Shown here: positions 2,265-29,515 of the stretch, piece after piece
How the letters are laid out: every line of letters begins with the position of its first letter
How positions within the stretch are numbered: the first letter of the stretch is position 1
DNA from: Candidatus Electrothrix sp. GW3-4
Lineage (GTDB): Bacteria; Desulfobacterota; Desulfobulbia; Desulfobulbales; Desulfobulbaceae
NCBI RefSeq assembly: GCF_037902255.1
Contig: NZ_CP147990.1
Span: 4,050,001-4,082,000 of the forward strand
Reading direction: 5' to 3'
DNA length: 32,000 nucleotides
Made by a program: the position numbers and the translations under genes
The notes under the pieces: generated by a model
Told to the model about the DNA's origin: nothing
The model's input: the letters and a program-made list of their open reading frames with translations, nothing else
The model's database searches: none

Positions 2265-2933
2265 GTGATTGCATTGATGACAGCGGCAACGGATATGGAG
2301 ATGCAGGCATTTTTAGATGCCAAAGGCGATCAGGAGGATATCTACTCCCTTGTTACAGGGATTGGGCCGGTGGAGACGACACTTTCTCTGGCAGGCATCC
2401 TCCATAAGCAACCAGAGATAGATTGGGTGCTGAATTTCGGTATTGCCGGGGCATATCTGGAAAATGACACGCCGCTTCAGGCCAGCTTGCTCGAGCTCTG
2501 CCTTGCTGAACAGGAGGTCCTGGGGGATCTCGGGATTCAGTTGGCAGATACGATGGAAAGGTTTGGCGGCGATCTGCCGGTACGGGATCGTTTTGTCCTG
2601 GATTCCGGCTTGCTGTCAGCAGCGGGCCAGATTCTGGAGCATGAGGATATTTCCTATAAGCTTGGGACCTTTGTGACAGTGAATTGCGCCAGCGGTACCC
2701 TGCATCGGGGGAATCAGCTCGGGCGTCAGTTTCGTGGGTTGTGCGAAAATATGGAAGGGGCAGCTGTGGCTCGGGTTTGTGAGGAATTTTCCCTGCCCTG
2801 CCTGGAGGTCCGTTGTATCAGTAATATGGTTGAGGATCGAAACCGGGAGAACTGGCGGATTCAGGAGGCCTGCGCTAAAGTGGGAAGGGCTGCCGCTGTT
2901 CTTGCGGCGGGGCTTGTTTCAGGCCGGTTCTGA
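2265..2933 (+). CDS. mqnB: Futalosine hydrolase (PNP/UDP-1 nucleosidase family, menaquinone futalosine pathway)
   Basis: 222 aa with a GTG start. The protein shows the nucleosidase fold motifs TGIGPVETT and ENMEGAAVARVC, and the C-terminal ISNMVEDRNRENW pattern typical of MqnB rather than Pfs. Confidence 0.65.
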   Translation: MIALMTAATDMEMQAFLDAKGDQEDIYSLVTGIGPVETTLSLAGILHKQPEIDWVLNFGIAGAYLENDTPLQASLLELCLAEQEVLGDLGIQLADTMERFGGDLPVRDRFVLDSGLLSAAGQILEHEDISYKLGTFVTVNCASGTLHRGNQLGRQFRGLCENMEGAAVARVCEEFSLPCLEVRCISNMVEDRNRENWRIQEACAKVGRAAAVLAAGLVSGRF

Positions 2934-2935
2934 TC

Positions 2936-4111
2936 TCATGCAGAGAGATTATTACGACCGCGATGCTCATTGACATAGATCCTGGGCACCCGCGCACTGA
3001 TATTGGTCAGGACCTCATAGCTGATCGTGCCGAGCTGCGCAGCGAGATCATCGGCGGTGATGACTTCCCCGCCCTGTCTGCCGATGAGCTGCACCTCTTC
3101 CCCGATATAGGCCTCTCCAGCACCGATACCGATCATGGTTTGATCCATGCAGACACTGCCGCGCACAGGATATCTCTGACCGCGCAGCAGAACCTGCCCT
3201 TTATTGGAGAGAGCACGAGGATAGCCGTCGCCGTATCCAACGGGAATGGTCACGACCCGGCAGTTCTGAGGAGCTGTCCAGGTCCTGCCGTAGCCGACAG
3301 AATTCCCGGCCAACACGACCTTAAAGTACATAATCTTTGCCCTGAGGGAAAGGGCAGGCTGGAGACTGGCTTGGGACTCGGTGGCTGGCGAAGGATGATA
3401 GCCGTACAGCATGATCCCCGGCCTGATCATATCAAGCTGGCTTTCTTCCATCCTCAGGATGGCCGCTGAATTGGCGATCTGGAGTAATGGAGAGGGGCGA
3501 TGTTCATGGGCAAAAAAACGGGTTGCTTCAAGAAATCGCTCCAGCTGGAGCTGGGCAAATCCCAGGTCTTGGTTATCTGAGTTGGCGAAATGGGAAAAGA
3601 TGGAGACCAGATTGAGGTATTTTTCTCCCTCTAAGGCTGCAGCAAAGAGTTTACGAGCGTTTGTATACCGTATCCCGATCCGCATCATGCCGGTATCGAC
3701 CTTCAGATGGATGTTGACCCGTTTTTTATAAAACTCAGCCGCTTCTCGGATATATTGCAACGCATCCACTGAAGCAATGGTCAGGTCAATATTATTTTCT
3801 ATAAAGAGGCCAATCTGAAATCGTGAAAACGGACCCGAGGTGATAATGGGAATGGTTATACCTGCCCTTCTCAGCTCCAGGGCTTCTTCAACAAAGGCGG
3901 TGCCCAGATAATCCACACCTTCTGAGGCCAGATGCTCCGCAACCCGTACCAGACCGTGGCCGTAGGCATTGGCCTTGACCATAGCGATGATCTTCCGACC
4001 AGGGGCCTTTTCCCGGACAACCTGGAGATTATGACTGATGCAGGCCAGGTCGACCACTGCTGCGGAACGATGATAGAGATCAGCAATATTTTCTCCTGTT
4101 ATGCAGTTCAA
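2936..4111 (-). CDS. alr: Alanine racemase
   Basis: 391 aa. It carries the canonical PLP-lysine motif MVKANAYGHG and overall Alr-like N-terminal barrel and C-terminal beta-domain sequence (GYGDGYPR, VCMDQ). It uses a TTG start with AGAGGA upstream. Confidence 0.9.
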   Translation of the reverse strand: MNCITGENIADLYHRSAAVVDLACISHNLQVVREKAPGRKIIAMVKANAYGHGLVRVAEHLASEGVDYLGTAFVEEALELRRAGITIPIITSGPFSRFQIGLFIENNIDLTIASVDALQYIREAAEFYKKRVNIHLKVDTGMMRIGIRYTNARKLFAAALEGEKYLNLVSIFSHFANSDNQDLGFAQLQLERFLEATRFFAHEHRPSPLLQIANSAAILRMEESQLDMIRPGIMLYGYHPSPATESQASLQPALSLRAKIMYFKVVLAGNSVGYGRTWTAPQNCRVVTIPVGYGDGYPRALSNKGQVLLRGQRYPVRGSVCMDQTMIGIGAGEAYIGEEVQLIGRQGGEVITADDLAAQLGTISYEVLTNISARVPRIYVNEHRGRNNLSA

Positions 4112-4244
4112 TTCCGTTTATCCTCTTTATGCGTTATCTTGATTGAGATAAAAAAAAGCTGAAGGAGCAGAGGAGGAGCTGAATGCGCGAAAACGCCTTT
4201 CGTTCAGATTCCTTTTGTCAGAGAAAATCATTCTCTCTGGGGGG

Positions 4245-4781
4245 TCATTTTCTCCGCACCCGACGCAGCCACTGCTCCCAGCCGTGCCGACTTGACAGCA
4301 GGAGGCCCCATCCCACGGCAAAATAGACCGTGCCAAGGAACAGGCCAGGCTCGGTCATACTGCGCAGGGCTATTCCCGAGGCCATCATCAGGATAACAAA
4401 GAGCCAGGTCTTCCAGGGATAGACCGCGCCGATGCAGCTCTTTTCATTAAGCGTCATGATGCGAGTCAGGGTCTTTTTCGCTGATCGATCTAAGATCATC
4501 AGGGACTTGATGGTGCCGAACAAGAGGGCGACTATAAACAGTTTACAGGTCAGACTGAAACCGATCCAGCTGAGCCCGCGTACCATGAGCATGATGCCCA
4601 CAGCTGTCCAGATAAAGGGGGCAACAAAAAGATGCGCAGATCTGCTGACACTAGGTCGGAATCGTGCTATGGCGTTTTTTTTGGGCGTATCGATTGACAC
4701 CGGAAAACCCCTTGTATGCTCAATGGATTGAGATGATTCCGTATAGTACGCAGAGCGCCTTATACAGCCTTTCCTGTGCAT
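4245..4781 (-). CDS. Hypothetical integral membrane protein (about 4 TM segments)
   Basis: The ORF is 4245..4811. Four hydrophobic segments are visible (AHLFVAPFIWTAVGIMLMV, LFIVALLFGTI, WLFVILMMASGIAL, LFLGTVYFAVGWGLLL). I could not recognise a family. The start is uncertain: TTG at 4811 or ATG at 4781. Confidence 0.5.
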   Translation of the reverse strand: MHRKGCIRRSAYYTESSQSIEHTRGFPVSIDTPKKNAIARFRPSVSRSAHLFVAPFIWTAVGIMLMVRGLSWIGFSLTCKLFIVALLFGTIKSLMILDRSAKKTLTRIMTLNEKSCIGAVYPWKTWLFVILMMASGIALRSMTEPGLFLGTVYFAVGWGLLLSSRHGWEQWLRRVRRK

Positions 4782-5020
4782 CCCTCTACAGAACCGGCCT
4801 TGGTTTGTCAAGGAGAAATGAGGGTCAGTCCATGAGAGGAATGCTCAGTATAGGCAGGACATTAAGGAGGGAACATGCTATCGTTTCCGCAGAAACGCCG
4901 CAAACCAGTCAGCTCCCCCTTGCCCCCTAATGATAATCCGTGTTAACTATTAGTAGAGACGAGAGAAGGCCAATACCCGGTAACCAACCGGTTCAATCAT
5001 AATACAACGAGGACTGGAAG

Positions 5021-5335
5021 ATGAAAAAAAAATTAAACTGCTGGGAAGCAAAAAAATGCGGGCGCGAGCCAGGCGGAGACAAGGTCTCTGAGCTTGGAGT
5101 CTGTCCTGTTGCCGAAGAAGGAAGAGCAGAAGGTATTCATGACGGAGAAAAGGGAGGTCGCTGTTGCTGGGCCATAGCAGGTTCTCTCTGCAAGGGAGAG
5201 CAACAGGGCAATTATGCAGAAAAATTCGGAGATTGCCGCAGCTGTGATTTCTATGAGATGGTAAAAAAAGAGGAGATGCCCCAGTTTAAACTTGGCCTTA
5301 CCATTTTAAAAGAAATAAAAGAGAAAGGCTCCTGA
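5021..5335 (+). CDS. Standalone two-CW domain protein (cysteine-rich)
   Basis: 104 aa. It contains NCWEAKKCGREPGG ... GVCPV ... GGRCCWAIAGSLCKGEQQG ... CRSCDFY. That is the two CW motifs plus the Cys pattern of the two-CW domain, which is normally the N-terminal module of deltaproteobacterial and archaeal signalling proteins. Confidence 0.65.
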   Translation: MKKKLNCWEAKKCGREPGGDKVSELGVCPVAEEGRAEGIHDGEKGGRCCWAIAGSLCKGEQQGNYAEKFGDCRSCDFYEMVKKEEMPQFKLGLTILKEIKEKGS

Positions 5336-5515
5336 GCGACAGGTCCTGCTTGCCGTAGCTGATCAACATCTGAGCGGCATCTGAGCAACAGGCAAAACCG
5401 GGACCTGATTCGATTCCGGCGCGAGACTGTACAGCCGGACGGGGGTTTCCTCCGGTCTGTGATAACTATTGAGGAGGCTTGCCTCCTCTGGGTGGAACTC
5501 CCGGCCTCCTTGACC

Positions 5516-8500
5516 ATGAGTAATTTGACACAGAATAGCGCAGAAAAGTTCGTTCGGCTTGTTCGATACCTCCGTGCATTATCGGCAATTAATGCAAAAA
5601 CTATCCGCACCCTGGAACAGTACCAAAAAAAGGTGCTCTGGTTGCCCCTTGACGCCGGTGTTGCCAACGTTGAACAGGATAAAGCTGATGATTCTCTCTG
5701 GATTGCGGTCAAACGGGGGGAAAAACCGCCGTTGCCCCCCCCTCCTGAGCGATGCAGGAAGTGGATTGACAAGGAGGCGTTGCAAAACCTTGATGCGACC
5801 CCTGAGCTCCGTCTTCCGCTTGACTTTATGCACACAACCCCAACGGCGGTCAACGCCCAGAGAGAGGAGACCCTTTATCCAGAGGCCTTTGCCCGAAGAG
5901 AACAGCAATGGCAGAACTATATCGAACAGCAATGGAAACCCTGGCGGGACCGTTGCCGACGCGTCCTCTCTCATGAGAAGATCTACACGGATCTGTTTCG
6001 TCTTTACCAGGAGCAGCAAAAGCTTGGTGAACAATATGAGCAGCTGCTTTGTTGCGGTTGCTTAACCTGGGAAACCCAGAACCGGGAAATTGTCCAACGG
6101 CATCTTATTGTGACGGAAGCTGCCATTTCCTTTGATCCAACCTCGAAAAGGCTGGCTGTTTATCAGACCTCACCGACCCCAAGAGTTGAGCTGGATATGC
6201 TTGCCCTGGAGGAACAACCACAAGATGCCCATACGCTCATCCAAGAGAATAATCAGGCATTAGAGGGAAATCTTCGCAAGAAAAAAGAGGTTGACAGGGT
6301 CCTCAACACCCTTGCCCAAACTCTGTTCACAGATCCTCCGGGGCAATATTTTCCTGACCGTCTTCAGCCCGAGCAAAATACCCCGACAGAACAGCCGGTC
6401 ATTACCTATGCCCCGGCCCTGATCATGAGAAAGCGGTCCATGCATCCTTTGGCGCATTTTCTCGATAAGATCCAGGATCAATCTCCACTCAGCACAGCTC
6501 TTCCAGAGGAATTTCGTCATCTCTGTGAAATGCACTCTGAAGAGACAAAGAGTGCTCTGAAAGAGGAACCGGCACAAGATCGGACTGAGGAGGCAATATT
6601 TTTCCCCCTTCCCTCCAACCAGGAACAACGCCGCATAGCCACAAGACTCAATAAGAACAGCGGGATACTTATCCAGGGCCCTCCAGGGACTGGCAAGTCG
6701 CATACAATTGCCAATCTCATCTGTCATCTGCTGGCTCAGGGGAAACGGGTGTTAGTGACAGCGCAAACCACGAGGGCCTTACATGTGCTCCATGACTTAC
6801 TCCCTGAGAATATTCATCCACTCTGTTTCAACGCCGCTGAGCAGGGCAGGCAAGAGCAAGCAGATCTGGAGCAAAAGATCAAGGCCATCTTGGCAGCAGA
6901 AAAGCTTCGCCAAGCAGCAGAGAACGAGCATATTCAGGAGCTGGAAGAGCGTATTCAGGCAAAACAACAGGCCCGGCAGACCACAGAGAAAAAGATCCTG
7001 GAGCTGCGTGAGCAAGAAACCCAGCAGCACAGGATGAATCAAGGGCATTATTCCGGAACCGCTGCTCAGATTGCTAAACAGGTACGCAAAGAGAAGGACG
7101 CCTTTTCTTGGTTTACAGATCGAATCACCCAGGACATGTCCCTCCCTTGGTCTCATCAACAACTTCTTTTCCTCCGCAAATATCTGCGTTCCACCGATGC
7201 AGGGGCAGAGAAAAAACTGGCTGGCAAAGAGCTCCCGCAACTGAAGAAAAAATTTCCAGTCCATAAGGTGCAAGAGGCCTTTGAAAAAGAAGAACAGGCC
7301 CGTCAGGCTGCATCTCTTGGAAGACAACGCCTCCAGAGCGGGTCGGGTAAGATGCTCTTTCAGGCAGGCAAAGCAGACCGAAAGGCAATTGAAGGAATAC
7401 GAGATCAGCTTGCTGGCTTTACCGAGACGGTGCGGGAATTGCAGCGGCGTCCTATGCCCTGGATTGCACCAGCTGTTTCTGATGTGCTCTGTGGGCGTAA
7501 CGCTGTCTGGCAAAATTTATTGCAACTCTCCCAGGAGGCTCTTCAAGATCTCCAGAAACTCATTGATCGGATTGATACCCTGGAGGTTGATATCTCCTGG
7601 GAGATCGATCGAAAAAAGCTCCTGCAGGATGCGCTGGCCCTGAAAAGGCATTTCAAGGCAGGAGGACGGGCGGGCAAATGGATTTTTAAGCCGGAAATCG
7701 TTCGAAAACATGCCACCTTACTCAGCAAGATCAGGATAGACGGTCAGCCCTGTAACACGCTGGACGCTCTGTGGAAGCTGGTCGATTACCTCCTGGTTGA
7801 TCGGAAATTATATTATGTCTGGCATCTCTGGGAGGGAAGGGCTGAACGAAGCACTGGCCATTTTTCTCTCCAATTTGCCGAAATCGAAGAACTCCTTAAA
7901 ACCCTACAACAGGTCCTTGCTCTCCATAAAAAACGAAAACTCCTGGAAGAACGACTGGGTTCGATCAATGGCCTGAACATGCCGGACTGGTCAGATGTCT
8001 CTGCTGTCCAGAGCCTGTTGGAGGACTGTCAGGCAGCGCTTGCCCGCCTTGATTTTCTCTGGCTCGGTTCTTCAATAACCCATGCCCAGAAGACACTTTC
8101 TGTCTTTGCCCAACGAAGCAATGCCCATCCGATAACGAAACTGGTTATTAAAAGTCTGCAAAAGAGAGATATCGAGACCTATCAACACCTCTTTACCGAG
8201 ATTGAAGACCTCAACCTCAAGAACAATGAACGGGTGGAGAAGAACCACCTGCTTGATGAACTGGCTGACATCGCACCTCAGCTGGCCACGCAACTGAGAA
8301 ATGGGCAGGAAAGGAGAGAGTGGGCAGATCGCCTTGGGCAGCTTGAACGGGCCTGGGCCTGGGCACAGGCCCAGGACTGGTTGCAGACCTTTCTTGCCAA
8401 TGACCTGGAAAGCCACCACCGACAGAGCCAGCGGCTTGCGCAGCAGATCAGAGAAGAACTTTCTGCCTTGACAGCTGCCAAGGCCTGGCAGCATTTTTTT

Positions 8501-9946
8501 CGTAAGATAACTCCGCAGCAACGTGGGCACATGGTGGCTTGGCAGCAGGCCATGAAAAAATTCGGCAAAGGAACAGGAAAACATGCGCAGACCCATAAAG
8601 AAAATGCCCGTCGCCATCTGAATGCCAGCCGAGCCGCTATTCCGGTCTGGATTATGCCGCTCCATCGTGTTTACGAAACCGTGCCCGCGGAACCTGGCTT
8701 CTTTGATGTCGTTATCGTTGATGAGGCCTCACAATGCGGACCTGAGTCCTTACCCCTGCTTTACCTTGGGAAACAAATCCTTGCGGCGGGAGATGATAAA
8801 CAGATCAGCCCGGAGGCTGTGGGGATAAACCGGGAGCATGTGCAGCAGCATATGCAGAACGCCCTCTTTGATTTTGAGTATGCCGATTCCTTTGATGTGG
8901 ATTCCAGCCTTTTTGACCATGGTCTCCTCCGTTTTGGCAATCGAATCGTCTTGCAGGAACATTTTCGTTGTATGCCGGAGATCATCGCGTTCAGCAATAC
9001 CCATTTTTATCAGGATGATCCTCTGGTCCCTCTTCGCCAATATCTGCCAGACCGGCTCCCCCCCCTCAAGGCAGTTTTGGTCAAAAATGGCTCCCGGCAA
9101 GGACAGGGGCAACGAACTATCAATCAGCAGGAGGCCGAGGCCTTGGTTGCGGCTGTCGTCCAATGTTGCCAGGAGAAACGTTACCAGGGAAAAACAATGG
9201 GCGTTATCGTCCTTCAGGGGATAGCCCAGGCCTATCTGATCGAAGAATTATTAATCAGGACGCTTGGGGTCGAGGAAATGGGGCGGCGCAGGCTTATCTG
9301 CGGCAACTCCTCCAGTTTCCAGGGCGGTGAACGAGATATTATCTTTCTCAGTATGGTGACTGCTCCTGAGCAGAAAATCCGAGCCCTGACCAAGGCAGCA
9401 GAACAACATAAATTTAACGTGGCTGCCAGTCGTGCCCGCGAACAGATGTGGCTCTTTCACTCTGTTCAGGAAAGGCATCTGCGCCCTGAATGTTTACGAT
9501 ATAAATTGATAAAGCATTTTCATTGTTCAGCTATACAGCATGCTGGTATGGCACCGAGTGAACAGGATGAGTTGCGGACAGCAGCGCAGCAGGCCAACAG
9601 GGCTGTGGAGACCCCGCCGGCACCGTTTCAGAGTTGGCTGGAAGTGGATATGGCCCTCCATCTCGGGGAGATGGGATACAGGATTATCCCGCAATATGCC
9701 TTTGCTGGCAGAAAGATAGATCTGGTTATTCAGGGGCAGCGGGCCCAGTTGGCTGTTGCCTGTGATAGTGATCAATGGCAGGGGGCGGAGCTGTATCTTG
9801 CTGATTTGGAACACCAAGAAAAATTGAAAAGATGTGGCTGGCAGGTGTTCAGGATTCGGGCAAGCCGTTACTATGCAGATCCAGCCAAGGCCCTGGACCC
9901 CCTTGTCCAGGGCCTTGAGCAGTTGGAAATCTTTCCAGCGCCTTGA
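5516..9946 (+). CDS. Large SF1 (Upf1/DNA2-like, AAA_11/AAA_12) helicase with a long coiled-coil insertion and a C-terminal Vsr/DUF559-like endonuclease-fold domain
   Basis: Walker A is GPPGTGKSHT (nt 6676-6699) and motif II is VIVDEASQ (nt 8711-8734), about 2 kb later. Further helicase motifs are FRCMPEIIAFSN, GGERDIIFLSMV and NVAASRAREQMWLF. The C-terminus WLEVDMALHLGEMGYRIIPQYAFAGRKIDLVIQGQRAQLAVACDSDQW...WQVFRIRASRYY matches the DUF559/Vsr-like layout. The ORF opens at GTG 5459. I chose the first ATG at 5516, so the start is uncertain. Confidence 0.8.
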   Translation: MSNLTQNSAEKFVRLVRYLRALSAINAKTIRTLEQYQKKVLWLPLDAGVANVEQDKADDSLWIAVKRGEKPPLPPPPERCRKWIDKEALQNLDATPELRLPLDFMHTTPTAVNAQREETLYPEAFARREQQWQNYIEQQWKPWRDRCRRVLSHEKIYTDLFRLYQEQQKLGEQYEQLLCCGCLTWETQNREIVQRHLIVTEAAISFDPTSKRLAVYQTSPTPRVELDMLALEEQPQDAHTLIQENNQALEGNLRKKKEVDRVLNTLAQTLFTDPPGQYFPDRLQPEQNTPTEQPVITYAPALIMRKRSMHPLAHFLDKIQDQSPLSTALPEEFRHLCEMHSEETKSALKEEPAQDRTEEAIFFPLPSNQEQRRIATRLNKNSGILIQGPPGTGKSHTIANLICHLLAQGKRVLVTAQTTRALHVLHDLLPENIHPLCFNAAEQGRQEQADLEQKIKAILAAEKLRQAAENEHIQELEERIQAKQQARQTTEKKILELREQETQQHRMNQGHYSGTAAQIAKQVRKEKDAFSWFTDRITQDMSLPWSHQQLLFLRKYLRSTDAGAEKKLAGKELPQLKKKFPVHKVQEAFEKEEQARQAASLGRQRLQSGSGKMLFQAGKADRKAIEGIRDQLAGFTETVRELQRRPMPWIAPAVSDVLCGRNAVWQNLLQLSQEALQDLQKLIDRIDTLEVDISWEIDRKKLLQDALALKRHFKAGGRAGKWIFKPEIVRKHATLLSKIRIDGQPCNTLDALWKLVDYLLVDRKLYYVWHLWEGRAERSTGHFSLQFAEIEELLKTLQQVLALHKKRKLLEERLGSINGLNMPDWSDVSAVQSLLEDCQAALARLDFLWLGSSITHAQKTLSVFAQRSNAHPITKLVIKSLQKRDIETYQHLFTEIEDLNLKNNERVEKNHLLDELADIAPQLATQLRNGQERREWADRLGQLERAWAWAQAQDWLQTFLANDLESHHRQSQRLAQQIREELSALTAAKAWQHFFRKITPQQRGHMVAWQQAMKKFGKGTGKHAQTHKENARRHLNASRAAIPVWIMPLHRVYETVPAEPGFFDVVIVDEASQCGPESLPLLYLGKQILAAGDDKQISPEAVGINREHVQQHMQNALFDFEYADSFDVDSSLFDHGLLRFGNRIVLQEHFRCMPEIIAFSNTHFYQDDPLVPLRQYLPDRLPPLKAVLVKNGSRQGQGQRTINQQEAEALVAAVVQCCQEKRYQGKTMGVIVLQGIAQAYLIEELLIRTLGVEEMGRRRLICGNSSSFQGGERDIIFLSMVTAPEQKIRALTKAAEQHKFNVAASRAREQMWLFHSVQERHLRPECLRYKLIKHFHCSAIQHAGMAPSEQDELRTAAQQANRAVETPPAPFQSWLEVDMALHLGEMGYRIIPQYAFAGRKIDLVIQGQRAQLAVACDSDQWQGAELYLADLEHQEKLKRCGWQVFRIRASRYYADPAKALDPLVQGLEQLEIFPAP

Positions 9947-14957: not shown

Positions 14958-15442
14958 AGTGTTCTCCCTTGTCTGCACGTTATGTTCTCTGTTCTCAGGG
15001 ATGGATTTGTCCACCATACGCAGCAGGCTGTTGTTTGTCAATGAAACAACGGGCAGTTATTGGCTATTGCCTTGGAAGAGAGAGCGTCAACGTTCACATC
15101 CCGATACCTTCCCCTAGCGAACCTGCCCGGCTCTGCATTGTCAGAGGTATCACGGCAGACGCCCATCGGATATCCTTTTTCCTGCCATCCCAGCCTTTAC
15201 ATGGACCAGGGATGTGCTGTGGGACAGGTTATGCCCGGTACTCGGGCGTTCTTCCCGATAAAATGAGCTTGTCCCCCTATTGTCCGGGTCGGAATAACCA
15301 TGTTATTTATTAACAAATAAGAAAAAATCAAAAAACATAACACCAACGTGACAGATTGATCTCTGTGATGATCAGGCAGGTAAAGGGCTTGCCTCCTGTC
15401 CACCAGGCTGTTGAATTGAATGAACTGAAAATAAGGAGAAAA

Positions 15443-16633
15443 ATGAAAATTCTATTAAGCAGCATCACCCTGCTGCTGGTCATCCTTGCAGGAACGGTGC
15501 AGGCAGGACAGCAAGACATGAAAGATCTCGGTGCCGAGGTGATTCAAACGGCCTTCTCCAAGCTGCGATTCTCCAGGGTCACAGCTGCCAATATCGCCTG
15601 CCTGACCAATGCCGGTTATGTACAGCATAAAGGAAAAAACACCCTGATGTTATACGATGTACTCCAGGACCACACAGGGATCAGCCTGGGTCGGGGCAAC
15701 CTGCTCCCCATGTACAGCGGGCCATACCAGCCACTCTGGTTCGCCTTTGTCTATAAAAGAATGCCGGGAGAGCTCCTCCTTACCTATGTTGTCGTCAAGG
15801 AGGAAGGAGCAGAGGCTACCAAGCCCATCAATATCTATGTGCATAGGCACCAGTCCTTTGCGCCCTTTACAGAACTACTCGGAGAAAAAGCACTTCCTAT
15901 AATCACTATGGCGAACGGCTGGGCCGACGGAATGCCGGAAGACCTTCTCCAGGGTGCCCTGTATCATGACCAGTTCTGTAGAGGAGTCCTCACCGGATAC
16001 TTCACGGCCCGTTTTATCCAGAAGCATTTTTCCCTGATCACTATGACCAATAGCTGGGACGATGCGACGCCTGAGGACCTGCTGCAGGGTACCCTGTCGC
16101 ATGACCATTTCTGCAGCGGGGCCATTACTGGCTATCTCACGGCCCGTTTTATCCTCAATACCTTCCCTCTCCGCAAAGGAGAGCAGTATACCTATATTGG
16201 GGTTCCAGGATGGTGCCGGGATGATTATCTCCTCCATTACCTCAACTTGAGCCCAGGAGAACGCGGCTATTACCTCATGTCTTCTCCCAAGCCCTGGCTG
16301 AAGACGAAACAGAAAGAGAAGAACGACGGCATTGTCATCCGCTTCAATAGCCAGGAGAACACCGGGCAGGCCGCAGCGCTCCGTTTTGACCGGCATGAAG
16401 ATGCCTTCCGGGAGTTCATCGGTGAACCAAAACTGGAGCTGGACTGGAAGAAGGAGCCTTGGCTGCATGTCTGGTACAACCGCTTTTTCCTCAGCCATCG
16501 CGATGAACCGAAGTACTTTGTCTCGGTGGTGAAGACAAAGGACCTGGAGAGCAAAGAGGAATTTGAGGCGCTGGTCGCCCCAGGCACGAATCCGCTGGAG
16601 GTGATCATTGGAGAGAATGCCTCCAGGAACTGA
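15443..16633 (+). CDS. Periplasmic FmdE-like domain protein with an internal 45-aa tandem duplication
   Basis: AAGGAG lies upstream of the ATG at 15443. The signal peptide is MKILLSSITLLLVILAGTVQA. There are two copies of an FmdE-type H-[DG]-[QH]-F-C-x-G-x-[LI]-TGY motif: YHDQFCRGVLTGY and SHDHFCSGAITGY. Confidence 0.6.
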   Translation: MKILLSSITLLLVILAGTVQAGQQDMKDLGAEVIQTAFSKLRFSRVTAANIACLTNAGYVQHKGKNTLMLYDVLQDHTGISLGRGNLLPMYSGPYQPLWFAFVYKRMPGELLLTYVVVKEEGAEATKPINIYVHRHQSFAPFTELLGEKALPIITMANGWADGMPEDLLQGALYHDQFCRGVLTGYFTARFIQKHFSLITMTNSWDDATPEDLLQGTLSHDHFCSGAITGYLTARFILNTFPLRKGEQYTYIGVPGWCRDDYLLHYLNLSPGERGYYLMSSPKPWLKTKQKEKNDGIVIRFNSQENTGQAAALRFDRHEDAFREFIGEPKLELDWKKEPWLHVWYNRFFLSHRDEPKYFVSVVKTKDLESKEEFEALVAPGTNPLEVIIGENASRN

Positions 16634-19394: not shown

Positions 19395-22184
19395 ATGCCG
19401 GATAAGACGATCAACTGTGAACAGAATTCCGCAATCTCCTGGTATCAGCTGGACGAGGCTGCGGTGCTGGAGGCATTGGGCACCAGCCGTGCAGGCCTGG
19501 CCCCCGAGATAGCCAGGGAACGGCAGCAGCATTGCGGCGTGAACGAGCTCCAGTTCAAAAAGACGCCAGCATGGGTGCGCTTTCTCCGCCAGTTTCACGA
19601 TCCCATGATCATTATCCTCTTGATCACGGCAACGATCACAGCTGGCTTGACTGCGGCGGGTCAACATATGTTGCCCGATACCCTGGTGATCGCCGGAGTG
19701 GTGGTGTTTAACGCGATCCTGGGCTTTATCCAGGAGGGCAAGGCCGAAGGTGCCTTGGATGCCCTGCGCAATATGATGGTCCAGGAATGTCTGGTGGTGC
19801 GGGCAGGAGACCAACAGCAGATCGCAGCCCGTGATCTGGTGCCAGGTGATATTGTGGTCTTGGAAGGGGGGAACAAGATCCCGGCCGACGTCCGCTTTAT
19901 CGAGACCAATAATGCCCATATCGACGAGTCGTCGCTGACCGGTGAGTCCGTGCCGGTGCAGAAGTCCACTGAGGCCCTGCAGGGCGGTGCTGATCTGGTC
20001 CCTGGCGATCAACGCAATATGGGCTTCTCTGGAACCTATCTGACCCAGGGCTCAGCCCTGACCGTGGTGGTTGCCATCGGCGCCCAGACCGTGTTCGGCA
20101 AGATTGCCGACCTGGTCAAGGCTGCTGACTCCGGCACCACGCCCCTGCAGAAAAAAATGCAGGAGTTTGTGCGCGCAATCATCATCGCCATCCTGATCAT
20201 TGGTGGTCTGAATTTTCTCCTCGGGGTATATCTCGGTTATGCGGTGAGCTACAGCTTTCTCGGGGCAGTGTCCTTGATTGTGGCGGCCATTCCTGAGATG
20301 CTGCCCGCCTTGGTGACCTCGATCCTGGCCCTGTCCTGTACGGTCATGGCCCGACGCAAGGCCCTGGTCAGAAAACTGCCTGCTGCAGAGACCCTGGGCG
20401 CCACCTCGGTCATCTGTTCTGATAAAACAGGGACCCTGACAGAAAACCGGATGACTGTGACCCGTATCTTCGCTGGCGGACAGGTCTACACCGTGACCGG
20501 GAGCGGCGAAGATCTTGAAGGCGAGTTTTTGCAGGAAAACGTGGCCCAGGATATCCATGCCCATCCTGCCCTCTTGAAAACCCTCTATACCGGCTTTTAT
20601 TGCAATAATGCCTCCCTGACCGTGAAGGGGCCCGCGACCGGTGATCCCACCGAGATCGCGCTCCGTGTCTCTGGCGCCAAGGCCGAGCTAATGGTGGAGG
20701 CCGTCCACCGCTGTATGGAAATCCCCTTTGACAGCTCGACCAAGTATATGGCGGTCCTGGTCAAGGAAGGGGAGCAGCCGTATATTTTGGTCAAGGGCGC
20801 ACCAGAGGTGGTGGTGGCCATGTGTGCAACCCAACTCAACCGCAACGGTGAACAGGAACTCATTGACCAGGAGGGCGCCCTGGCCGCAGCAAAGGCCTTT
20901 GCCGGTGATGCCTTGCGCACCCTGGCCTTTGCCCTGTTGCCGGTGTCATCGAACTGTAAAGACCTCACCCATGACCAGCTGCGCGGTCTCTGCCTGGCTG
21001 GCTTACAGGGCATGATCGATCCACCCAAACAGTCTGCCATCGAAGCGGTTGGCCAATGTCGGCAGGCGGGTATCCGGACGGTGATGATTACCGGAGACCA
21101 TCCGGCGACTGCCCAGGCAGTGGCCCGGCAACTGGGGATCGCTGCCGATCGCGCCATGACCGGCAGACAGTTGGCCAGTCTCAGCGATGAGGAACTGTTT
21201 CAGGCGGTCAAGGAGATCTCCGTGTTTGCCCGGGTAGCACCGGAGCATAAAAAGCGGATTGCAGAGAGTCTGCGCAGCCACGACCTGGTGGTGGCCATGA
21301 CCGGTGACGGGGTCAATGATGCGCCAGCGCTCAAGGCGGCGGATATCGGTATCGCCATGGGTATCAGCGGCACTGAGGTGGCCAAGGAGGCCTCTGATAT
21401 GGTCTTGGCAGACGATAACTTTGCCACCATTATAGCGGCAGTGGAAGAGGGGCGTCATGCCTGGAATAACCTGCGCAAGGCAATCCTCTATACCCTGCCT
21501 ACAAATGCCGCCCAGGCCCTGTTGATCATCGGCGCTATCTTGATGGCCTCCTTTATTCCCTTGTTCTCCATACGCTTTGTCCTGGAACCGGTCCAGATCC
21601 TCTGGATCAACCTGCTGGATTCCGTCCTGCTGACCATGCCCTTGATGATGGAGGCCAAGGAGAAGGGCCTGTTGGCATCTCCCCCGCGCAGTTCTCGGGC
21701 CCGTATTATCGATGCCCTGTTTTTGCGCCGTGTTGTCTTGGTCGGGCTGGCGATTGCCGTGCCCGGAGCCCTGATCTACCACCATTTTGGCGCAGCGGCC
21801 GTGGTCGATGGCCAATTGGTTGCTCCCCTGCTCCTGACCCAGGCGCAAACCGCTGCCTTCTGGGCGATCCTGCTGGCCCATTTTGGCTATGTCCTATCCG
21901 CCCGCTCGGTGGATGCCTCGGTTTTTACCCTTAATCCCTTGGGCAATCGCTGGCTGCTGGCCGGTATTGTAATCAGTATCCTGATTCGATTGATTCCCAC
22001 CGCCATACCTGCGGCGGCATCCTTGTTCAAGACCGCCCCCTTCCCTGCCGACTGGTGGCCCTTGATCCTCGCCTGCTTTTTTCCCAGCCTGCTCATGATT
22101 GAATTAGACAAGCTCCTGGCAAGGATGGGGATCTTCCAGAGTGCTCATGAAACAAGGGAGCCATCTCCCGTTGCAGATGCGTGA
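19395..22184 (+). CDS. Type II (SERCA/PMCA-like, Ca2+/Mg2+-type) cation-transporting P-type ATPase
   Basis: The phosphorylation site is CSDKTGTLTENRM. Other motifs are the actuator LTGESVPV, the hinge MTGDGVNDAPALKAADIGIAMG and the TM4 AIPEMLPAL (IPE type). There is no CPC motif and no N-terminal CxxC, so it is not a P1B heavy-metal pump. Confidence 0.9.
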   Translation: MPDKTINCEQNSAISWYQLDEAAVLEALGTSRAGLAPEIARERQQHCGVNELQFKKTPAWVRFLRQFHDPMIIILLITATITAGLTAAGQHMLPDTLVIAGVVVFNAILGFIQEGKAEGALDALRNMMVQECLVVRAGDQQQIAARDLVPGDIVVLEGGNKIPADVRFIETNNAHIDESSLTGESVPVQKSTEALQGGADLVPGDQRNMGFSGTYLTQGSALTVVVAIGAQTVFGKIADLVKAADSGTTPLQKKMQEFVRAIIIAILIIGGLNFLLGVYLGYAVSYSFLGAVSLIVAAIPEMLPALVTSILALSCTVMARRKALVRKLPAAETLGATSVICSDKTGTLTENRMTVTRIFAGGQVYTVTGSGEDLEGEFLQENVAQDIHAHPALLKTLYTGFYCNNASLTVKGPATGDPTEIALRVSGAKAELMVEAVHRCMEIPFDSSTKYMAVLVKEGEQPYILVKGAPEVVVAMCATQLNRNGEQELIDQEGALAAAKAFAGDALRTLAFALLPVSSNCKDLTHDQLRGLCLAGLQGMIDPPKQSAIEAVGQCRQAGIRTVMITGDHPATAQAVARQLGIAADRAMTGRQLASLSDEELFQAVKEISVFARVAPEHKKRIAESLRSHDLVVAMTGDGVNDAPALKAADIGIAMGISGTEVAKEASDMVLADDNFATIIAAVEEGRHAWNNLRKAILYTLPTNAAQALLIIGAILMASFIPLFSIRFVLEPVQILWINLLDSVLLTMPLMMEAKEKGLLASPPRSSRARIIDALFLRRVVLVGLAIAVPGALIYHHFGAAAVVDGQLVAPLLLTQAQTAAFWAILLAHFGYVLSARSVDASVFTLNPLGNRWLLAGIVISILIRLIPTAIPAAASLFKTAPFPADWWPLILACFFPSLLMIELDKLLARMGIFQSAHETREPSPVADA

Positions 22185-22597: not shown

Positions 22598-22632
22598 GAG
22601 CCCCCTCTTCTGCTGAGCAGAAGAGGGGGCTC
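22598..22632 (+). promoter_or_regulatory. Perfect 15-16 bp GC-rich hairpin in the TBDR 5' leader (attenuator/terminator-like)
   Basis: GAGCCCCCTCTTCTGC-tga-GCAGAAGAGGGGGCTC lies 46 nt upstream of the TBDR ATG and is followed by AGCCTTATTATAT. Confidence 0.6.
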
Positions 22633-22678: not shown

Positions 22679-24808
22679 ATGAAGAACAACAGGAAACTTC
22701 CCTGGCTTATTCCGGTGCTGCTGTTGGCCGGAGTGACCTCTGCGACGGCAGCCGAAGAACAGGCAAAAGACGCGAAAAACGATATCAAGGAGATGGAAGA
22801 GATCGTGGTCTCAGCAGAGAGCGGTGCCCAGGGCATTGTCCTGACCCCAACCGAGACCGTGATCAACACCGAGCAATTCAACAGCATCGGTGCGGCAAGC
22901 ACGGTGGATGAGGTGCTCAAGCACCATAGTATTATTGATTCCCGGGCCCAGTCCGATCTGGTCCCGGATGACGACACCATCACCCTGCGCGGTTTCAGCA
23001 ACAACCGCTTTGTCACCGCCCTGGACGGCCTGACCATTCAGAAGACCGGGGGCCGCAAGAGTTCTCATATCGTTGACTTTGCCCTCCTCCCTACCTTCCT
23101 GATTGAGAGCATCGAGATCCTGCCCGGTCCCCACTCGGCCCTCTACGATGCCAAGGGGATCGGCGGGGTGCTCAACCTGGTGAGCAAGCGCCCGCAAAGA
23201 CGGGACAGCCTGAAGCCGGATGTCAGCCTGTCCACCGGCCTCCGTTCCTATAACACCCAACGCCATAACCTGAGCGTGGAAGGCGGGATCCAGAACTTCA
23301 CCTACGATCTTGGCTACCAAAAGGACTCCTCTGATGGCTACCTCCGTAACCATGAATCGGATATCGATACCGTTTTTACCCGCTTTAGCTATCTCCTGCC
23401 CGATGACGGCCTGATCACCCTCAGTGGCTCCTATACCTGGGCCGACAGAACTATCCCGGTGAAGAACCCAGGGACCGCCCAGGACGGCAGTGAAGACTAT
23501 GACAGCTCCTATCCGGTCTATGAGGATGCCTCCTTTGAGCCCTGGGAGGACCCGGACTGGAATAAGGACGCCTATTCCCTGCGTCTGCACGGGGACAAGG
23601 CAACCGCCATCGGTACCCTCTCCCTCAATGCCTACACCAGCAAGGAGGATCGGGACCGGGCCTACTATGTCAAGGAGGGCAAGGACATTGTCTATACCCC
23701 CTGGCTGACCGAGTGGTGGCAGCATGGCGGTAAGCTCCAGGATGAGATCCAATGGAATGAGGACCACACCACCACCATCGGGGCTGATCTGGTCCAGATG
23801 TACGATGACGGCATTGTCGATAACGAGGACACGGAGCGGATCAACAAAAAAGGCCTCTATGTCCAGCACCAATGGGCCCTCCTCCCCAGTCTGGACCTGC
23901 GTCTGGGCGCACGCTACGAGGATGTCACCATCTGGGTGAGTAACGGATCGAGCTCGCCTTACATAGCAGGCCAGGACATGGCCATTGAACGCAACTGGAG
24001 TGAGCCTATTCCCAAGTCCTTCCTGACCTGGAAGATGGACGAGCTCACTCCCTGGCTGCGGGACACCTCCCTTTCCGCCGGTGTCAGCAAGATCTGGCAT
24101 GCCCCGGATTACCACGGCGACTATAACCCCCAGGGTAAACCGGCTGGGGCCTGGCTGGAGCCTGAACACGGCATGGGCTATGACCTGGTCTTCACCCGCC
24201 GTCTCTGGCGGGATATCGCGCTCAAAGCGAACTACTCCTTTTACAGTATTGAGGATTATATTGCTTATAACCGGAGCTTTGCCAAGTACGGCAGCTCAAA
24301 GGCCGGAGCTTTGGCCTATTCCGATTATAAGATCAACCTGGAAGAGATGCAGCGGCACGGCCTGGAGCTGGAACTGGACGGGCATATCACTGATGATCTT
24401 TCCTTTTACCTCACCTATGCCTGGCAGAACTTTGAAAATCAGGGGAATGAACCCGCCGGAGAGCAGGTGCAGGACGGTCAGGCCGAAAATCGCCTTACCC
24501 TGGGACTGCGCTATGACCTGTTCGAGAACACCATGTTGATGCTCGACTACTCCTATCAGGGCGCAGAGGTTACCGAGGTGTCCGAGGAGGTCCAGCCCGA
24601 TACCTGGGTTTTCCATGAAGTGGAGAACCCTTCCTACAGTGTCTTTGATCTCGGATTCGAGCAAACCCTGCTGGAGAATGCCTATCGTATGCAGGATGTC
24701 AAACTAAATCTGTACGTCAAGAACCTCCTTGATGAAGAATACTATGAAACCAAGGGCACGCCGTCAACGGACCGGACCTTCGGGGCCATTCTGTCCATGC
24801 GCTTCTAG
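22679..24808 (+). CDS. TonB-dependent outer-membrane receptor
   Basis: The signal peptide is MKNNRKLPWLIPVLLLAGVTSATA. Plug motifs are EEIVVSA, ITLRGF and IEILPGPHSALYDAKGIGGVLNLVSK. A long beta-barrel ends in the terminal aromatic ...ILSMRF. Confidence 0.9.
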   Translation: MKNNRKLPWLIPVLLLAGVTSATAAEEQAKDAKNDIKEMEEIVVSAESGAQGIVLTPTETVINTEQFNSIGAASTVDEVLKHHSIIDSRAQSDLVPDDDTITLRGFSNNRFVTALDGLTIQKTGGRKSSHIVDFALLPTFLIESIEILPGPHSALYDAKGIGGVLNLVSKRPQRRDSLKPDVSLSTGLRSYNTQRHNLSVEGGIQNFTYDLGYQKDSSDGYLRNHESDIDTVFTRFSYLLPDDGLITLSGSYTWADRTIPVKNPGTAQDGSEDYDSSYPVYEDASFEPWEDPDWNKDAYSLRLHGDKATAIGTLSLNAYTSKEDRDRAYYVKEGKDIVYTPWLTEWWQHGGKLQDEIQWNEDHTTTIGADLVQMYDDGIVDNEDTERINKKGLYVQHQWALLPSLDLRLGARYEDVTIWVSNGSSSPYIAGQDMAIERNWSEPIPKSFLTWKMDELTPWLRDTSLSAGVSKIWHAPDYHGDYNPQGKPAGAWLEPEHGMGYDLVFTRRLWRDIALKANYSFYSIEDYIAYNRSFAKYGSSKAGALAYSDYKINLEEMQRHGLELELDGHITDDLSFYLTYAWQNFENQGNEPAGEQVQDGQAENRLTLGLRYDLFENTMLMLDYSYQGAEVTEVSEEVQPDTWVFHEVENPSYSVFDLGFEQTLLENAYRMQDVKLNLYVKNLLDEEYYETKGTPSTDRTFGAILSMRF

Positions 24809-24961: not shown

Positions 24962-26665
24962 ATGACTATGTGGAGAAGCATTCAATCACAAAGAAGCAAA
25001 AGCAGTGCCCTGTTGACGGCCCTGCTCTGGGCGTTCGCGTTCATTGCCGGTCTCAGCGGCAACGCCACGGCCGCCGAACCGCAGCAGCAGACAGGCAGTT
25101 TTAAGGTCGTGGGCGTAGGCCCTGGCGACGGTGACCTGCTGACCCTCAGGGCGGTCAAGGCCATTGAGGACGCCGAGGTGGTCTTTTGCAGCACCCGCAA
25201 GCAAGAAGGCCTGGCCTCAGCAGTGGATTTCAGCGGCAAGGAGGTCATTGACGGCTATGGGGTCCTGTTCTGGCATTACGGCAAGGAATGCAGCAAGAAT
25301 GAGGTCAAACACTTCAAGCAGCGGATGAGCTGTGAGGAGTACCATGCCAAGCAGGCAGCATTTGCCCGCATGGTGCGCAACGCGGTCGCCCAGGGCAAGG
25401 ATGTGGTGATGTTGAGCAGTGGTGATCCCACCATCTACGGCCCGGATATCTGGACCCTGCGAGAACTGAGCGAGCTGGATACCGAGCTGATTCCTGGTCT
25501 CAGTGCCTTTAATGCCGCCAATGCGGCCCTGGAGGCCAGCCTGGGTGAGGTGATTATCACCGCCCCCTTTATCAGCAAGGATGGGGAGCAGGACAGCCTG
25601 GAGCAGCTCTCCGCTCATGAAAAGGCCACCATGGTCATCTTCATGCCCTGGGATATAGGGAAGACCTTTCAGCGCTTAGCCAAGACCTATCCGGCAGAGA
25701 CCCCGGCAGCCGTGGTCAGCAATGCCGGTATGACCGGGAAAGAAAAGGCCGTTCTCGGGACCGTGGGCAGTTTTGCTGCGGACTCCTCTGGCCTGGACGG
25801 CAATCGCTCCATTATCTATGTGGGGGAGCGCTTGGAGCAGGCCCAGTTTACCAAGACCCCGGACAAGACGGCAGGAAAAGGAAAGTACTATCTGGTGGGC
25901 ATGGGGCCCGGCGACCCTGATCTGGCCAGCCTTCGGGCCATGAAAGTTATTCAAGAGGCGGATATCATTTTCAGTGGTGAAAAAATCAAGAAAAAATTTC
26001 AAGAAGTGCTCAAAGGAAAAGAGGTCATCAGCGGCTATCACCGGCTCTTCCCTTATTACGGTAAGACCTGCAGCAACAGCGAAGATGACGACAAACGCAA
26101 AAACGGGATGAACTGCCAAGAGTACCATCAGAAACAGGAAGAGTTTGCCGCCAGGGTACGCAAGGCCGTGGCTGAGGGTAAGACTGTAGCCATGCTCGAC
26201 AGCGGCGATCCCCTGGTCTATGGCCCCTGCTCCTGGTCGATCACCGAACTAAAAGACCTGGATACCGAAGTGGTGCCCGGAGTCAGTTGTTTCAATGCGG
26301 CCAATGCAGCCCTCAAGGCCGGGGTTACCGAGGGGAAAACCTCCCATTCGGTTATCCTGGCTTCAGGCTGGACCGTGGATGAAATGGCTCGCCATCAAAG
26401 CACCATGGTCCTGTTCACCATGCGCAACGAGTTCAAGAAGTTCATTGATACCCTGACGAAATATTATTCCCCGGATACTCCGGCTGCTGTTGTTGTCCGT
26501 GCTGGCTATGCCCAGAATGAACGGGTGGTCCACGGTACCCTGGGAACCATGCTCGACCAGGTGGGCAAAAAAAAACTGCCCTTTGAATACATGCTCTATG
26601 TGGGAGATTTCCTAAAAACGAGCCCGGATCGCATCCCGGCTCCGACTGTCTCGCAATCATTATAA
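24962..26665 (+). CDS. Secreted tandem tetrapyrrole-methylase-fold (CbiF/CobM-like) protein
   Basis: The Sec-type signal is M(T)MWRSIQSQRSKSSALLTALLWAFAFIAGLSGNATA-AEP. There are two TP_methylase-like halves. The first (about 25100-25860) has VVGVGPGDGDLLTLRA...SSGDPTIYGP...IPGLSAFNAA. The second (about 25886-26620) has LVGMGPGDPDLASLRA...DSGDPLVYGP...VPGVSCFNAA. The start is the ATG at 24962 or at 24968. Confidence 0.75.
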   Translation: MTMWRSIQSQRSKSSALLTALLWAFAFIAGLSGNATAAEPQQQTGSFKVVGVGPGDGDLLTLRAVKAIEDAEVVFCSTRKQEGLASAVDFSGKEVIDGYGVLFWHYGKECSKNEVKHFKQRMSCEEYHAKQAAFARMVRNAVAQGKDVVMLSSGDPTIYGPDIWTLRELSELDTELIPGLSAFNAANAALEASLGEVIITAPFISKDGEQDSLEQLSAHEKATMVIFMPWDIGKTFQRLAKTYPAETPAAVVSNAGMTGKEKAVLGTVGSFAADSSGLDGNRSIIYVGERLEQAQFTKTPDKTAGKGKYYLVGMGPGDPDLASLRAMKVIQEADIIFSGEKIKKKFQEVLKGKEVISGYHRLFPYYGKTCSNSEDDDKRKNGMNCQEYHQKQEEFAARVRKAVAEGKTVAMLDSGDPLVYGPCSWSITELKDLDTEVVPGVSCFNAANAALKAGVTEGKTSHSVILASGWTVDEMARHQSTMVLFTMRNEFKKFIDTLTKYYSPDTPAAVVVRAGYAQNERVVHGTLGTMLDQVGKKKLPFEYMLYVGDFLKTSPDRIPAPTVSQSL

Positions 26666-29158: not shown

Positions 29159-29515
29159 ATGAATAATAGAACAAAAAAACAAGGTTTCTTTCTCTCACTT
29201 CTCATCCTCGGCCTCCCCCTCTTCTTTTCCGTTCAAGGACAGGCCCACGGCGTGCATGGTGATACCGGGAGCGGCAGCAAAGCCATCTGCACCTCTGCTT
29301 CCTATGAGGACGGCGAATCAATGAGCTACGCCACAGTGGAAATTATCGCCCCAAATGCCAAACTCCCGTTCCAGACCGGCCGGACTGACCGGAACGGGTA
29401 TTTCTGTTTCCGACCGGATACACCGGGTCGTTGGAAGATCACGGTCAAGGATGAGGATGGCCATTTTATCCGTCTGGGTACCAAGGTGAGCAAAGAGATG
29501 TTGAACGATGAATAA
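29159..29515 (+). CDS. Small secreted carboxypeptidase-regulatory-like (transthyretin-fold) protein with a His-rich mature N-terminus
   Basis: The signal peptide is ...LILGLPLFFSVQGQA and the mature start is HGVHGD. The core ATVEIIAPNAKLPFQTGRTDRNGYFCFRPDTPGRWKITV fits the CarboxypepD_reg pattern. Confidence 0.6.
   Translation: MNNRTKKQGFFLSLLILGLPLFFSVQGQAHGVHGDTGSGSKAICTSASYEDGESMSYATVEIIAPNAKLPFQTGRTDRNGYFCFRPDTPGRWKITVKDEDGHFIRLGTKVSKEMLNDE

Follow-up and report, generated by a model that had tools for sequence, protein, structure and literature searches.

Candidatus Electrothrix encodes an exported tandem methyltransferase-fold protein beside a TonB-dependent receptor, a putative partner in metal or metal-chelate uptake

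TonB-dependent uptake loci with periplasmic partners are a known kind of system: in CntO (for pseudopaline), ZnuD, OprC and FrpB4, a receptor in the outer membrane is coupled to handling of a metal or metallophore in the periplasm, and the receptors OprC and ZnuD themselves contain metal-ligating residues. None of them is known to have a methyltransferase-fold periplasmic partner or an inner-membrane step of the APC/LAT type. Here we analyzed a 32,000-nucleotide stretch of Candidatus Electrothrix sp. GW3-4 (contig NZ_CP147990.1, positions 4,050,001 to 4,082,000; hereafter the window), in which a TonB-dependent receptor gene is followed by a gene for an exported protein with two domains of the class III methyltransferase fold, named TPM2 in this work. 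What is new is this methyltransferase-fold partner, the pairing of the family with selenoprotein receptors and the LAT-type inner-membrane step. We tentatively read TPM2 as a periplasmic, receptor-coupled component of a TonB-dependent module for uptake of a transition metal or metal chelate, partnering the DUF4198 and NikL-like binders encoded downstream, with a pocket that would hold an amino-acid or nucleoside moiety of the cargo.

Two described groups of proteins place TPM2. CbiF/CobM (precorrin-4 C11-methyltransferase; PDB 1CBF, 3NDC, 4E16) have the two-lobed fold and glycine-rich S-adenosylmethionine (SAM) loops in common with it. Enzymes of this type are canonically homodimers, which the tandem fusion in TPM2 plausibly mimics, and we propose that the class III methyltransferase fold forms a pseudo-dimer in TPM2, many relatives of which are lipid-anchored. 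A conceptual precedent for relocating a fold of tetrapyrrole synthesis is CbiK(P) of the sulfate reducer Desulfovibrio vulgaris, a periplasmic cobaltochelatase paralog with a signal peptide that binds haem and is neighboured by ABC-type (ATP-binding cassette) iron/haem transport genes; its class II chelatase fold is unrelated to that of TPM2, and no homology between the two was found. DUF4198 proteins are again a different family, defining the context of TPM2 rather than TPM2 itself: Zcp of Neisseria gonorrhoeae and NikK of the energy-coupling factor (ECF) nickel transporters are periplasmic, bind metal and are tied to TonB-dependent or ECF uptake, and Zcp is a periplasmic homodimer that holds zinc through three histidines and can bind Co, Ni and Cu in vitro (PMC12663993). 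For exported TP_methylase proteins, our searches found neither a paper nor an NCBIfam model or a dedicated Pfam family; the paper on nickel in cable bacteria does not cover the locus of TPM2.

Export, fold and cofactor pocket of TPM2

The reading frame of TPM2 runs uninterrupted to its stop at 26665, and the likeliest start codon is an ATG at 24962, with AAGGAG 5 nt before it; a 100% identical NCBI protein (P0001) is modelled to begin two codons later. The N-terminus reads MTMWRSIQSQRSKSSALLTALLWAFAFIAGLSGNATA-AEP, in which residues 1-37 have the basic n-region, hydrophobic core (ALLTALLWAFAFIAGL) and A-x-A site of a Sec signal peptide, as an earlier interpretation of this DNA made from its letters alone (hereafter the sequence-only reading) had proposed. 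That reading had worried about a true start beyond the hydrophobic segment, and we found no in-frame start with a ribosome-binding site between this segment and the first domain motif. A mis-called start is excluded because a hydrophobic N-terminal 11-mer precedes the first domain in all 102 homologs with a usable N-terminus, 50 of which also show a lipobox-like motif. Predicted export is a conserved trait of the close homologs, which number 120 at 57-86% identity and come from Desulfosarcina, Desulfonema, Desulfocarbo, Electrothrix and other Desulfobacterota. Class III methyltransferases are expected to reside in the cytoplasm, where they have access to SAM, and TPM2 with its predicted signal peptide departs from this expectation.

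The two CbiF/CobM-like domains of the sequence-only reading were borne out, as Pfam PF00590 (TP_methylase) matches TPM2 twice (292 bits vs. a cutoff of 27.8) and the halves are 45% identical to each other (E 2e-63), with all hallmark motifs present in both (GVGPGDGDL/GMGPGDPDL, SGDPTIYGP/SGDPLVYGP and PGLSAFNAA/PGVSCFNAA in half 1/half 2). The C-terminal half is the more conserved of the two and the nearest to single-domain relatives. An AlphaFold2 (AF2) model built from 63 homologs (pLDDT 87.5, pTM 0.87) has its best Foldseek matches in CbiF/CobM (1cbf, 3ndc, 4e16; E ~1e-15, target-normalised template-modelling score ~0.8 per domain); significant matches from phmmer and Foldseek against the PDB are all class III methyltransferases, and none among them is a BtuF-type cluster A solute-binding protein, BtuG or HmuT. 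In contrast to CbiF/CobM, TPM2 is predicted to be exported through Sec (with lipidated relatives), has two domains per chain, carries in each an insert of ~29 residues before helix B that is not present in canonical CbiF, and shares with the other exported proteins signatures of their own (GDPxIYGP..W and PGxS(S/C)FNAANAAL). Its best NCBIfam match, cobM_cbiF (TIGR01465), reaches 201.4 bits summed over both domains, below the cutoff of 259.65, and NF012017 gives 130.6 bits vs. a cutoff of 408. Judged by these profile scores, TPM2 is not a CbiF/CobM equivalog at the family level.

Both inserts contain a cysteine pair within the motif HYGKECS...MSCEEYHAKQ (half 1) or YYGKTCS...MNCQEYHQKQ (half 2), as read initially, and the four cysteines (C110, C124, C370 and C385) are invariant in alignments of 63 and of 116 homologs. 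In the AF2 model the inserts are mostly coil, the second cysteine of each pair opening a long helix. Among 48 exported single-domain clusters, however, the insert varies and is rich in charged residues, and 39 of the representatives have neither cysteine, with both present in five and one in four. The pair together with the EYH motif is therefore restricted to one subgroup and cannot be central to what the family does; the Cys pair as the family's core metal site was rejected on this ground. The pattern would fit a subgroup-specific disulfide staple.

The pocket behaves differently from the inserts. In NirE, the amino group of SAM or S-adenosylhomocysteine (SAH) is contacted by D105 and I108 and the carboxylate by T133 and A134, while P27 and G215 touch the adenine and M186 meets both SAM and the substrate (PMC4731766). 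By motif identity and spacing, the inferred equivalents in half 1/half 2 of TPM2 are P54/P316 for P27, D155/D416 for D105, I158/V419 for I108, S181/S442 for T133, A182/C443 for A134, M228/M487 for M186 and G256/G515 for G215. Across 63 sequences, the Pro, Asp, Ser, Met and Gly equivalents never vary in either half, and the 48 exported single-domain clusters, which are at most 50% identical to each other, keep them at ~80-90%. On these alignments, the SAM-type pocket is the most strongly selected part of this Sec-exported family, and herein lies the real puzzle of the finding. The catalytic residues of NirE fare otherwise, with the equivalents of Arg111 being Pro161/Pro422 and those of Glu114 being Trp164/Trp425. 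That the fold had merely lost its SAM function, as the sequence-only reading had it, is at odds with the contact residues kept in both halves and in the 48 clusters; intact SAM-binding residues were among the observations that this reading had itself named as speaking against it, and at the level of sequence, and at that level only, they are found.

Beyond the close homologs, a HMMER scan of 1.84 billion cluster representatives returned 72 clusters at E <= 1e-30, the best matches being mostly single-domain proteins of 270-310 residues that again start with a signal peptide; more distant tandem versions, at 36-44% identity, are P0122, P0124 and one in the metagenomic locus L092. Fusion partners are likewise extracytoplasmic. 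In P0140, P0143 and P0182, a DUF4198 domain shares the chain with the exported methylase-fold domain. The commonest fusion type among the representative clusters joins Oxidored_molyb-like domains to it, as in the Sec-exported P0201, P0210 and P0237 (~570-600 residues, two Oxidored_molyb-like domains each), some such fusions carrying a CxxCH haem-attachment motif. Exported FmdE, rhodanese and a PBP_like_2 binding protein are further fused or neighbouring domains, with FmdE-like C-terminal extensions seemingly fused in P0146 and P0157. Many TPM2 homologs are labelled 'precorrin-4 methylase' by JGI; this name and 'SAM-dependent methyltransferase' are automatic, and hundreds of such database entries are probably mis-assigned to cobalamin biosynthesis.

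The receptor block and its relatives

Five genes stand on one strand in the window with gaps of 69-153 nt (the largest between the receptor gene and TPM2), encoding the TonB-dependent receptor, TPM2, an exported DUF4198 protein, an APC permease and a small NikL-like protein (Table 1). The same order, with or without a single-domain exported methylase-fold paralog (TPM1) after the DUF4198 gene, is found in L001 (Desulfosarcina, with TPM1 and an exported FmdE protein), L003/L004 (metagenome assemblies from ENA, with TPM1 and with ExbB-ExbD-TonB ahead of the block), L005 (a JGI metagenome contig) and L006 (Desulforapulum). In L002 (Desulfocarbo indianensis) the TPM2-DUF4198 pair lies downstream of a receptor remnant, the last ~57 codons only (~9700-9900). 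Downstream of the block, a fusion of a major facilitator superfamily (MFS) transporter, a spermidine-synthase-like domain and tetratricopeptide repeats (TPR), of ~1000-1080 residues, occurs in L001 (16819-20058), L004 (15455-18688; the fusion is also part of the L003/L004 arrangement) and L005 (14737-17697) but not in the window. No cob/cbi genes are present in the window or in L001-L006, where the TPM2 family stands beside receptor, DUF4198 or transporter genes in contrast to the cob/cbi operons of CbiF/CobM.

Two further loci repeat the same-strand adjacency of a receptor and a methylase-fold gene, so that the linkage proposed by the sequence-only reading held in every Desulfobacterota locus examined (as a remnant in L002) and in unrelated loci. 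The metagenomic L092 has four receptor plus methylase-fold modules in tandem, followed by the LAT-type permease of the block (61% identical) and ExbB genes. Two of its receptor genes (8-1768 and 2807-4975) carry TGA in frame within PCPU and PUIUD motifs (selenocysteine types NF049947 and NF049944), the PCPU receptor scoring 1099 bits against NF049947 and thus above the cutoff of 800, and both are directly followed by an exported single-domain TP_methylase-like gene of a GTGPAGP subtype. A gene-calling program would break each of the two receptors apart. Within the same array, a fusion of an exported inosine-uridine nucleoside hydrolase with FmdE (6083-7579) hints at a nucleoside-containing periplasmic substrate. 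In L173, from a Logan assembly, ExbB-ExbD-TonB-receptor is followed by a methylase-fold/SBP_bac_6-like fusion without a signal peptide (4588-7156) and then by a G3E (CobW/HypB-type) metallochaperone GTPase.

The exported methylase-fold domain is constantly accompanied by DUF4198, either from a neighbouring gene or within one chain. DUF4198 is encoded near that domain also in the Planctomycete loci L007 and L093, from phyla without such receptors, and in L089, which reads CbiQ-DUF4198-DUF1559-TPM1. Scans of genome and metagenome contigs with the generic pattern LVGxGPGD[PAS]D mostly returned ordinary cytoplasmic CobA/CysG-type genes, the relevant loci being only L006-L010, L092 and L093; contigs around P0126, P0129 and P0163 were too short to inform on gene context.

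Table 1. Features of the window around TPM2
Feature	Position in the window	Strand	Basis or content
TPM2, exported tandem class III methyltransferase-fold protein, 567 aa	24962..26665	+	ORF, Pfam, AF2, Foldseek
Sec-type signal peptide of TPM2, residues 1-37, predicted cleavage ATA-AEP	24962..25072	+	sequence; kept in usable homologs
N-terminal TP_methylase domain, ~residues 45-293	25094..25840	+	Pfam, half-vs-half alignment
Insert 1, ~residues 97-128, invariant C110 and C124	25250..25345	+	homolog alignments, AF2, cluster comparison
C-terminal TP_methylase domain, ~residues 307-553	25880..26620	+	Pfam, half-vs-half alignment
Insert 2, ~residues 357-388, invariant C370 and C385	26030..26125	+	homolog alignments, AF2
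TonB-dependent receptor, 709 aa, signal peptide	22679..24808	+	Pfam Plug, TonB_dep_Rec_b-barrel
Exported DUF4198 protein, 275 aa	26763..27590	+	Pfam DUF4198, 151 bits
LAT/SLC7-type APC permease, 473 aa	27660..29081	+	profile matches, locus comparison
NikL-like small exported protein, 118 aa, transthyretin-like domain	29159..29515	+	NF058648 NikL family, E 6e-12
Exported protein with two FmdE-like repeats (HDQFCRG, HDHFCSG)	15356-16633, likely start 15443	+	Pfam FmdE
Palindromic hairpin in the receptor leader	22598-22632		perfect 16-bp stem
P-type cation ATPase (type II)	19395-22184		Cation_ATPase_N/C
Helicase ORF, 1495 aa	5459-9946		superfamily-1 helicase domains (AAA_11/AAA_12), C-terminal MTES_1575 restriction-endonuclease-like domain

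The closest relatives of the window receptor are among the NCBIfam selenocysteine-motif receptors (NF049944-NF049947, of the PUIUD, FCYXU, CU and PCPU types), the nearest being NF049945 (TonB_dep_FCYXU), against which it scores 765 bits and thus below the cutoff of 825. In contrast to these families, it has no cysteine or selenocysteine anywhere in the protein. Aligned with the PCPU or PUIUD motif (C-P-U/U-I-U) of paralogs is a conserved loop, WHAPDYHGDYNPQG...LEPEHG, also given as APDYHGDYNPQG...LEPEHG. This loop follows an xRAP motif and offers His, Asp and Glu residues in place of the Cys/selenocysteine pairs of the paralogs, which suggests, as far as motif comparison goes, that it may be in direct contact with a metal centre. 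Haem receptors have an axial histidine between their FRAP and NPNL boxes, an arrangement that the loop may resemble. Outside the selenocysteine-motif families, the receptor clade matches the haem/haemoglobin model TIGR01785 best, at 109-159 bits and below its cutoff. The clade profile matches many solved receptors through the plug domain, CntO and OprC among them, and gives no specific substrate assignment, the window receptor being only distantly related to metal-specific receptors. A selenoprotein among TonB-dependent receptors has been noted in Desulfosarcina sp. BuS5 (PMC12013277).

The DUF4198 protein of the window matches Zcp (9MHI, E 1e-23) and NikK (9GCB, E 2e-4) in the PDB, and its predicted mature N-terminus begins with histidine (GA before, HKIW after the cleavage site). 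The predicted mature N-terminus of the NikL-like protein is similarly HGVHG; this protein also matches CarboxypepD_reg and the C-terminal part of DUF4198 in Pfam and has orthologs in L001, L003 and L006. Since it lacks the C-terminal membrane anchor of the orthologs in L001 and L003 (155-161 residues), it is presumably soluble in the periplasm. The permease, whose relatives are the LAT/SLC7 exchangers BasC and LAT1/2, retains the amino-acid-binding signatures GTG in transmembrane segment 1 and FAYSGW in segment 6; no gene of the block is better conserved (58-63% identity between loci). An exported FmdE protein (signal peptide MKILLSSITLLLVILAGTVQA) is encoded 6 kb upstream, not adjacent to the block; it may belong to the system, as exported FmdE proteins adjoin the block or its relatives in L001, L008 and L092.

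Regulatory signals did not name a cargo. Rfam searches at the gathering threshold over the window, L001, L003 and L005 gave no riboswitch or other credible match, searches at an E-value threshold over the window block and the receptor leaders of L001 and L006 gave nothing credible, and matches to Fur, Zur and NikR consensus sequences upstream of five receptor genes were not above chance. The ~500-nt leader of the window receptor contains, 47 nt before the receptor start, the perfect hairpin GAGCCCCCTCTTCTGC-TGA-GCAGAAGAGGGGGCTC, which has no Rfam match, and the receptor leaders of L001, L005 and L006 have strong hairpins followed by T-runs; these may represent attenuation or an unrecognised cis-regulatory RNA.

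Two other genes of the window are recorded in Table 1. The cation ATPase gene lies directly upstream of the receptor gene and is not kept in the other loci, and the helicase ORF looks like a defence or repair protein unrelated to TPM2.

Metal handling and the competing explanations

The linkage to a receptor and the periplasmic metal-binding neighbours (DUF4198 and NikL-like) make periplasmic, receptor-coupled metal handling a fair reading; this much of the earlier proposal, that the fold was recruited as a metal-handling or corrinoid-binding partner of the receptor, has stood, and its corrinoid half has found no support. We surmise that the receptor would admit the cargo, with the loop after the xRAP motif taking part through its His, Asp and Glu residues, and that TPM2 would then take the organic portion by means of a remodelled substrate cleft and the conserved SAM-type pocket, which may be built for an alpha-amino-acid and/or nucleoside moiety. 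The metal ion would pass to the DUF4198 and NikL-like proteins, and the LAT-type permease would carry an amino-acid-like species over the inner membrane. The data show export, the fold, the tandem architecture, the conserved pocket residues and the conserved gene linkage with its fusions, whereas we infer what the cargo is, in which order it is handed over and whether it undergoes any chemistry. Several points weigh against this scheme. No regulator site or riboswitch was found that points to a particular metal. Cofactor motifs usually decay when an enzyme fold is recruited for non-catalytic binding, and their full retention here would fit an active enzyme better. A LAT-type permease is not adjacent to the Planctomycete and Acidobacteria relatives, which leaves its part in the scheme less than certain. 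The signal-less relative in the similar receptor locus L173 means that the family is not exclusively periplasmic. On balance, we give periplasmic metal handling somewhat less than an even chance of being correct in full.

Retention of the pocket favours the possibility, which we consider doubtful, that TPM2 is a genuine periplasmic SAM-dependent methyltransferase, its SAM supplied by the LAT-type exchanger through SAM/SAH or SAM/Met exchange. By analogy with ChuW, a methyl-transferring radical-SAM enzyme of anaerobic haem opening, the two or three methylase-fold domains of a locus might methylate an imported cargo, possibly a metallo-tetrapyrrole, and so free the metal for the DUF4198 and NikL-like proteins. 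The invariant contact equivalents speak for this, as does a best-conserved permease from a family of obligate exchangers with its alpha-amino-acid signatures kept; the MFS-spermidine-synthase-like-TPR fusion of several loci would bring in another domain of the SAM/decarboxylated-SAM type, the nucleoside hydrolase-FmdE fusion of L092 could dispose of the adenosyl product, and the multiplicity of methylase-fold domains per locus recalls the serial C-methylations of corrin synthesis. Sec export, however, delivers an unfolded, cofactor-free protein, and to our knowledge neither a periplasmic SAM pool nor a periplasmic SAM-dependent enzyme has been described. Neither the permease nor the spermidine-synthase-like fusion is adjacent to the exported Planctomycete and Acidobacteria relatives, the latter being missing from the window as well, and no acceptor substrate was identified. 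The NirE catalytic Arg and Glu are replaced in both halves, although CbiF also lacks that Arg. A fully specified version strikes us as improbable: SAM would be exported by the LAT-type exchanger (with SAH or Met possibly retrieved), exported class III methyltransferases would C-methylate a receptor-imported metallo-tetrapyrrole or metal chelate, the metal would be released to the DUF4198 and NikL-like proteins, and the selenocysteine/His loops of the receptors would ligate the metal centre during import. We regard as unlikely, in turn, that TPM2 is a non-catalytic periplasmic shuttle, in the manner suggested by CbiK(P), to which the receptor passes a corrinoid or another tetrapyrrole such as haem or an F430-type ring. 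CbiF/CobM do hold cobalt-precorrin-4 in the inter-domain cleft, the inserts of TPM2 would lie, by the model, on a loop bordering that cleft, and the TIGR01785 matches of the receptor clade, the His or Cys/selenocysteine residues after its xRAP motif, which may parallel the axial histidine of haem receptors, and the CxxCH motifs of some fusion partners would fit as well. The locus context argues otherwise: there was no cobalamin riboswitch or other Rfam match in the window or four related loci, the block has no BtuF/BtuCD, haem ABC or ECF-CbrT transporter, the one inner-membrane transporter conserved in it is homologous to amino-acid exchangers and as such an unlikely tetrapyrrole carrier, and the constant partners are binders of metal ions; such a shuttle also leaves the retained SAM contacts unexplained. 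These data lend no support to a specifically corrinoid role. The last possibility, that TPM2 is a common cytoplasmic precorrin methylase whose start was mis-called or whose N-terminus is hydrophobic by chance, has in its favour the JGI labels and the cobM_cbiF model as top NCBIfam match. Against it stand the sub-cutoff score of that match, the lack of cob/cbi neighbours, and the start backed by a ribosome-binding site together with the hydrophobic leaders across usable homologs, on which we excluded it as very improbable.

Implications for anaerobic sediment bacteria

If this family binds or modifies receptor cargo, TonB-dependent uptake would gain a periplasmic component of a new class. The hosts concerned are anaerobic sediment bacteria, namely Desulfobacterota, including the cable bacteria with their unusual nickel demand, as well as Planctomycetes and Acidobacteria. 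The family would also offer a first functional handle on selenocysteine-containing TonB-dependent receptors. As for the conserved SAM site in a Sec-exported protein, either the pocket now serves a different amino-acid or nucleoside ligand or there is SAM in the periplasm; the latter, if true, would overturn a common assumption, and SAM chemistry in this compartment would be categorically new.

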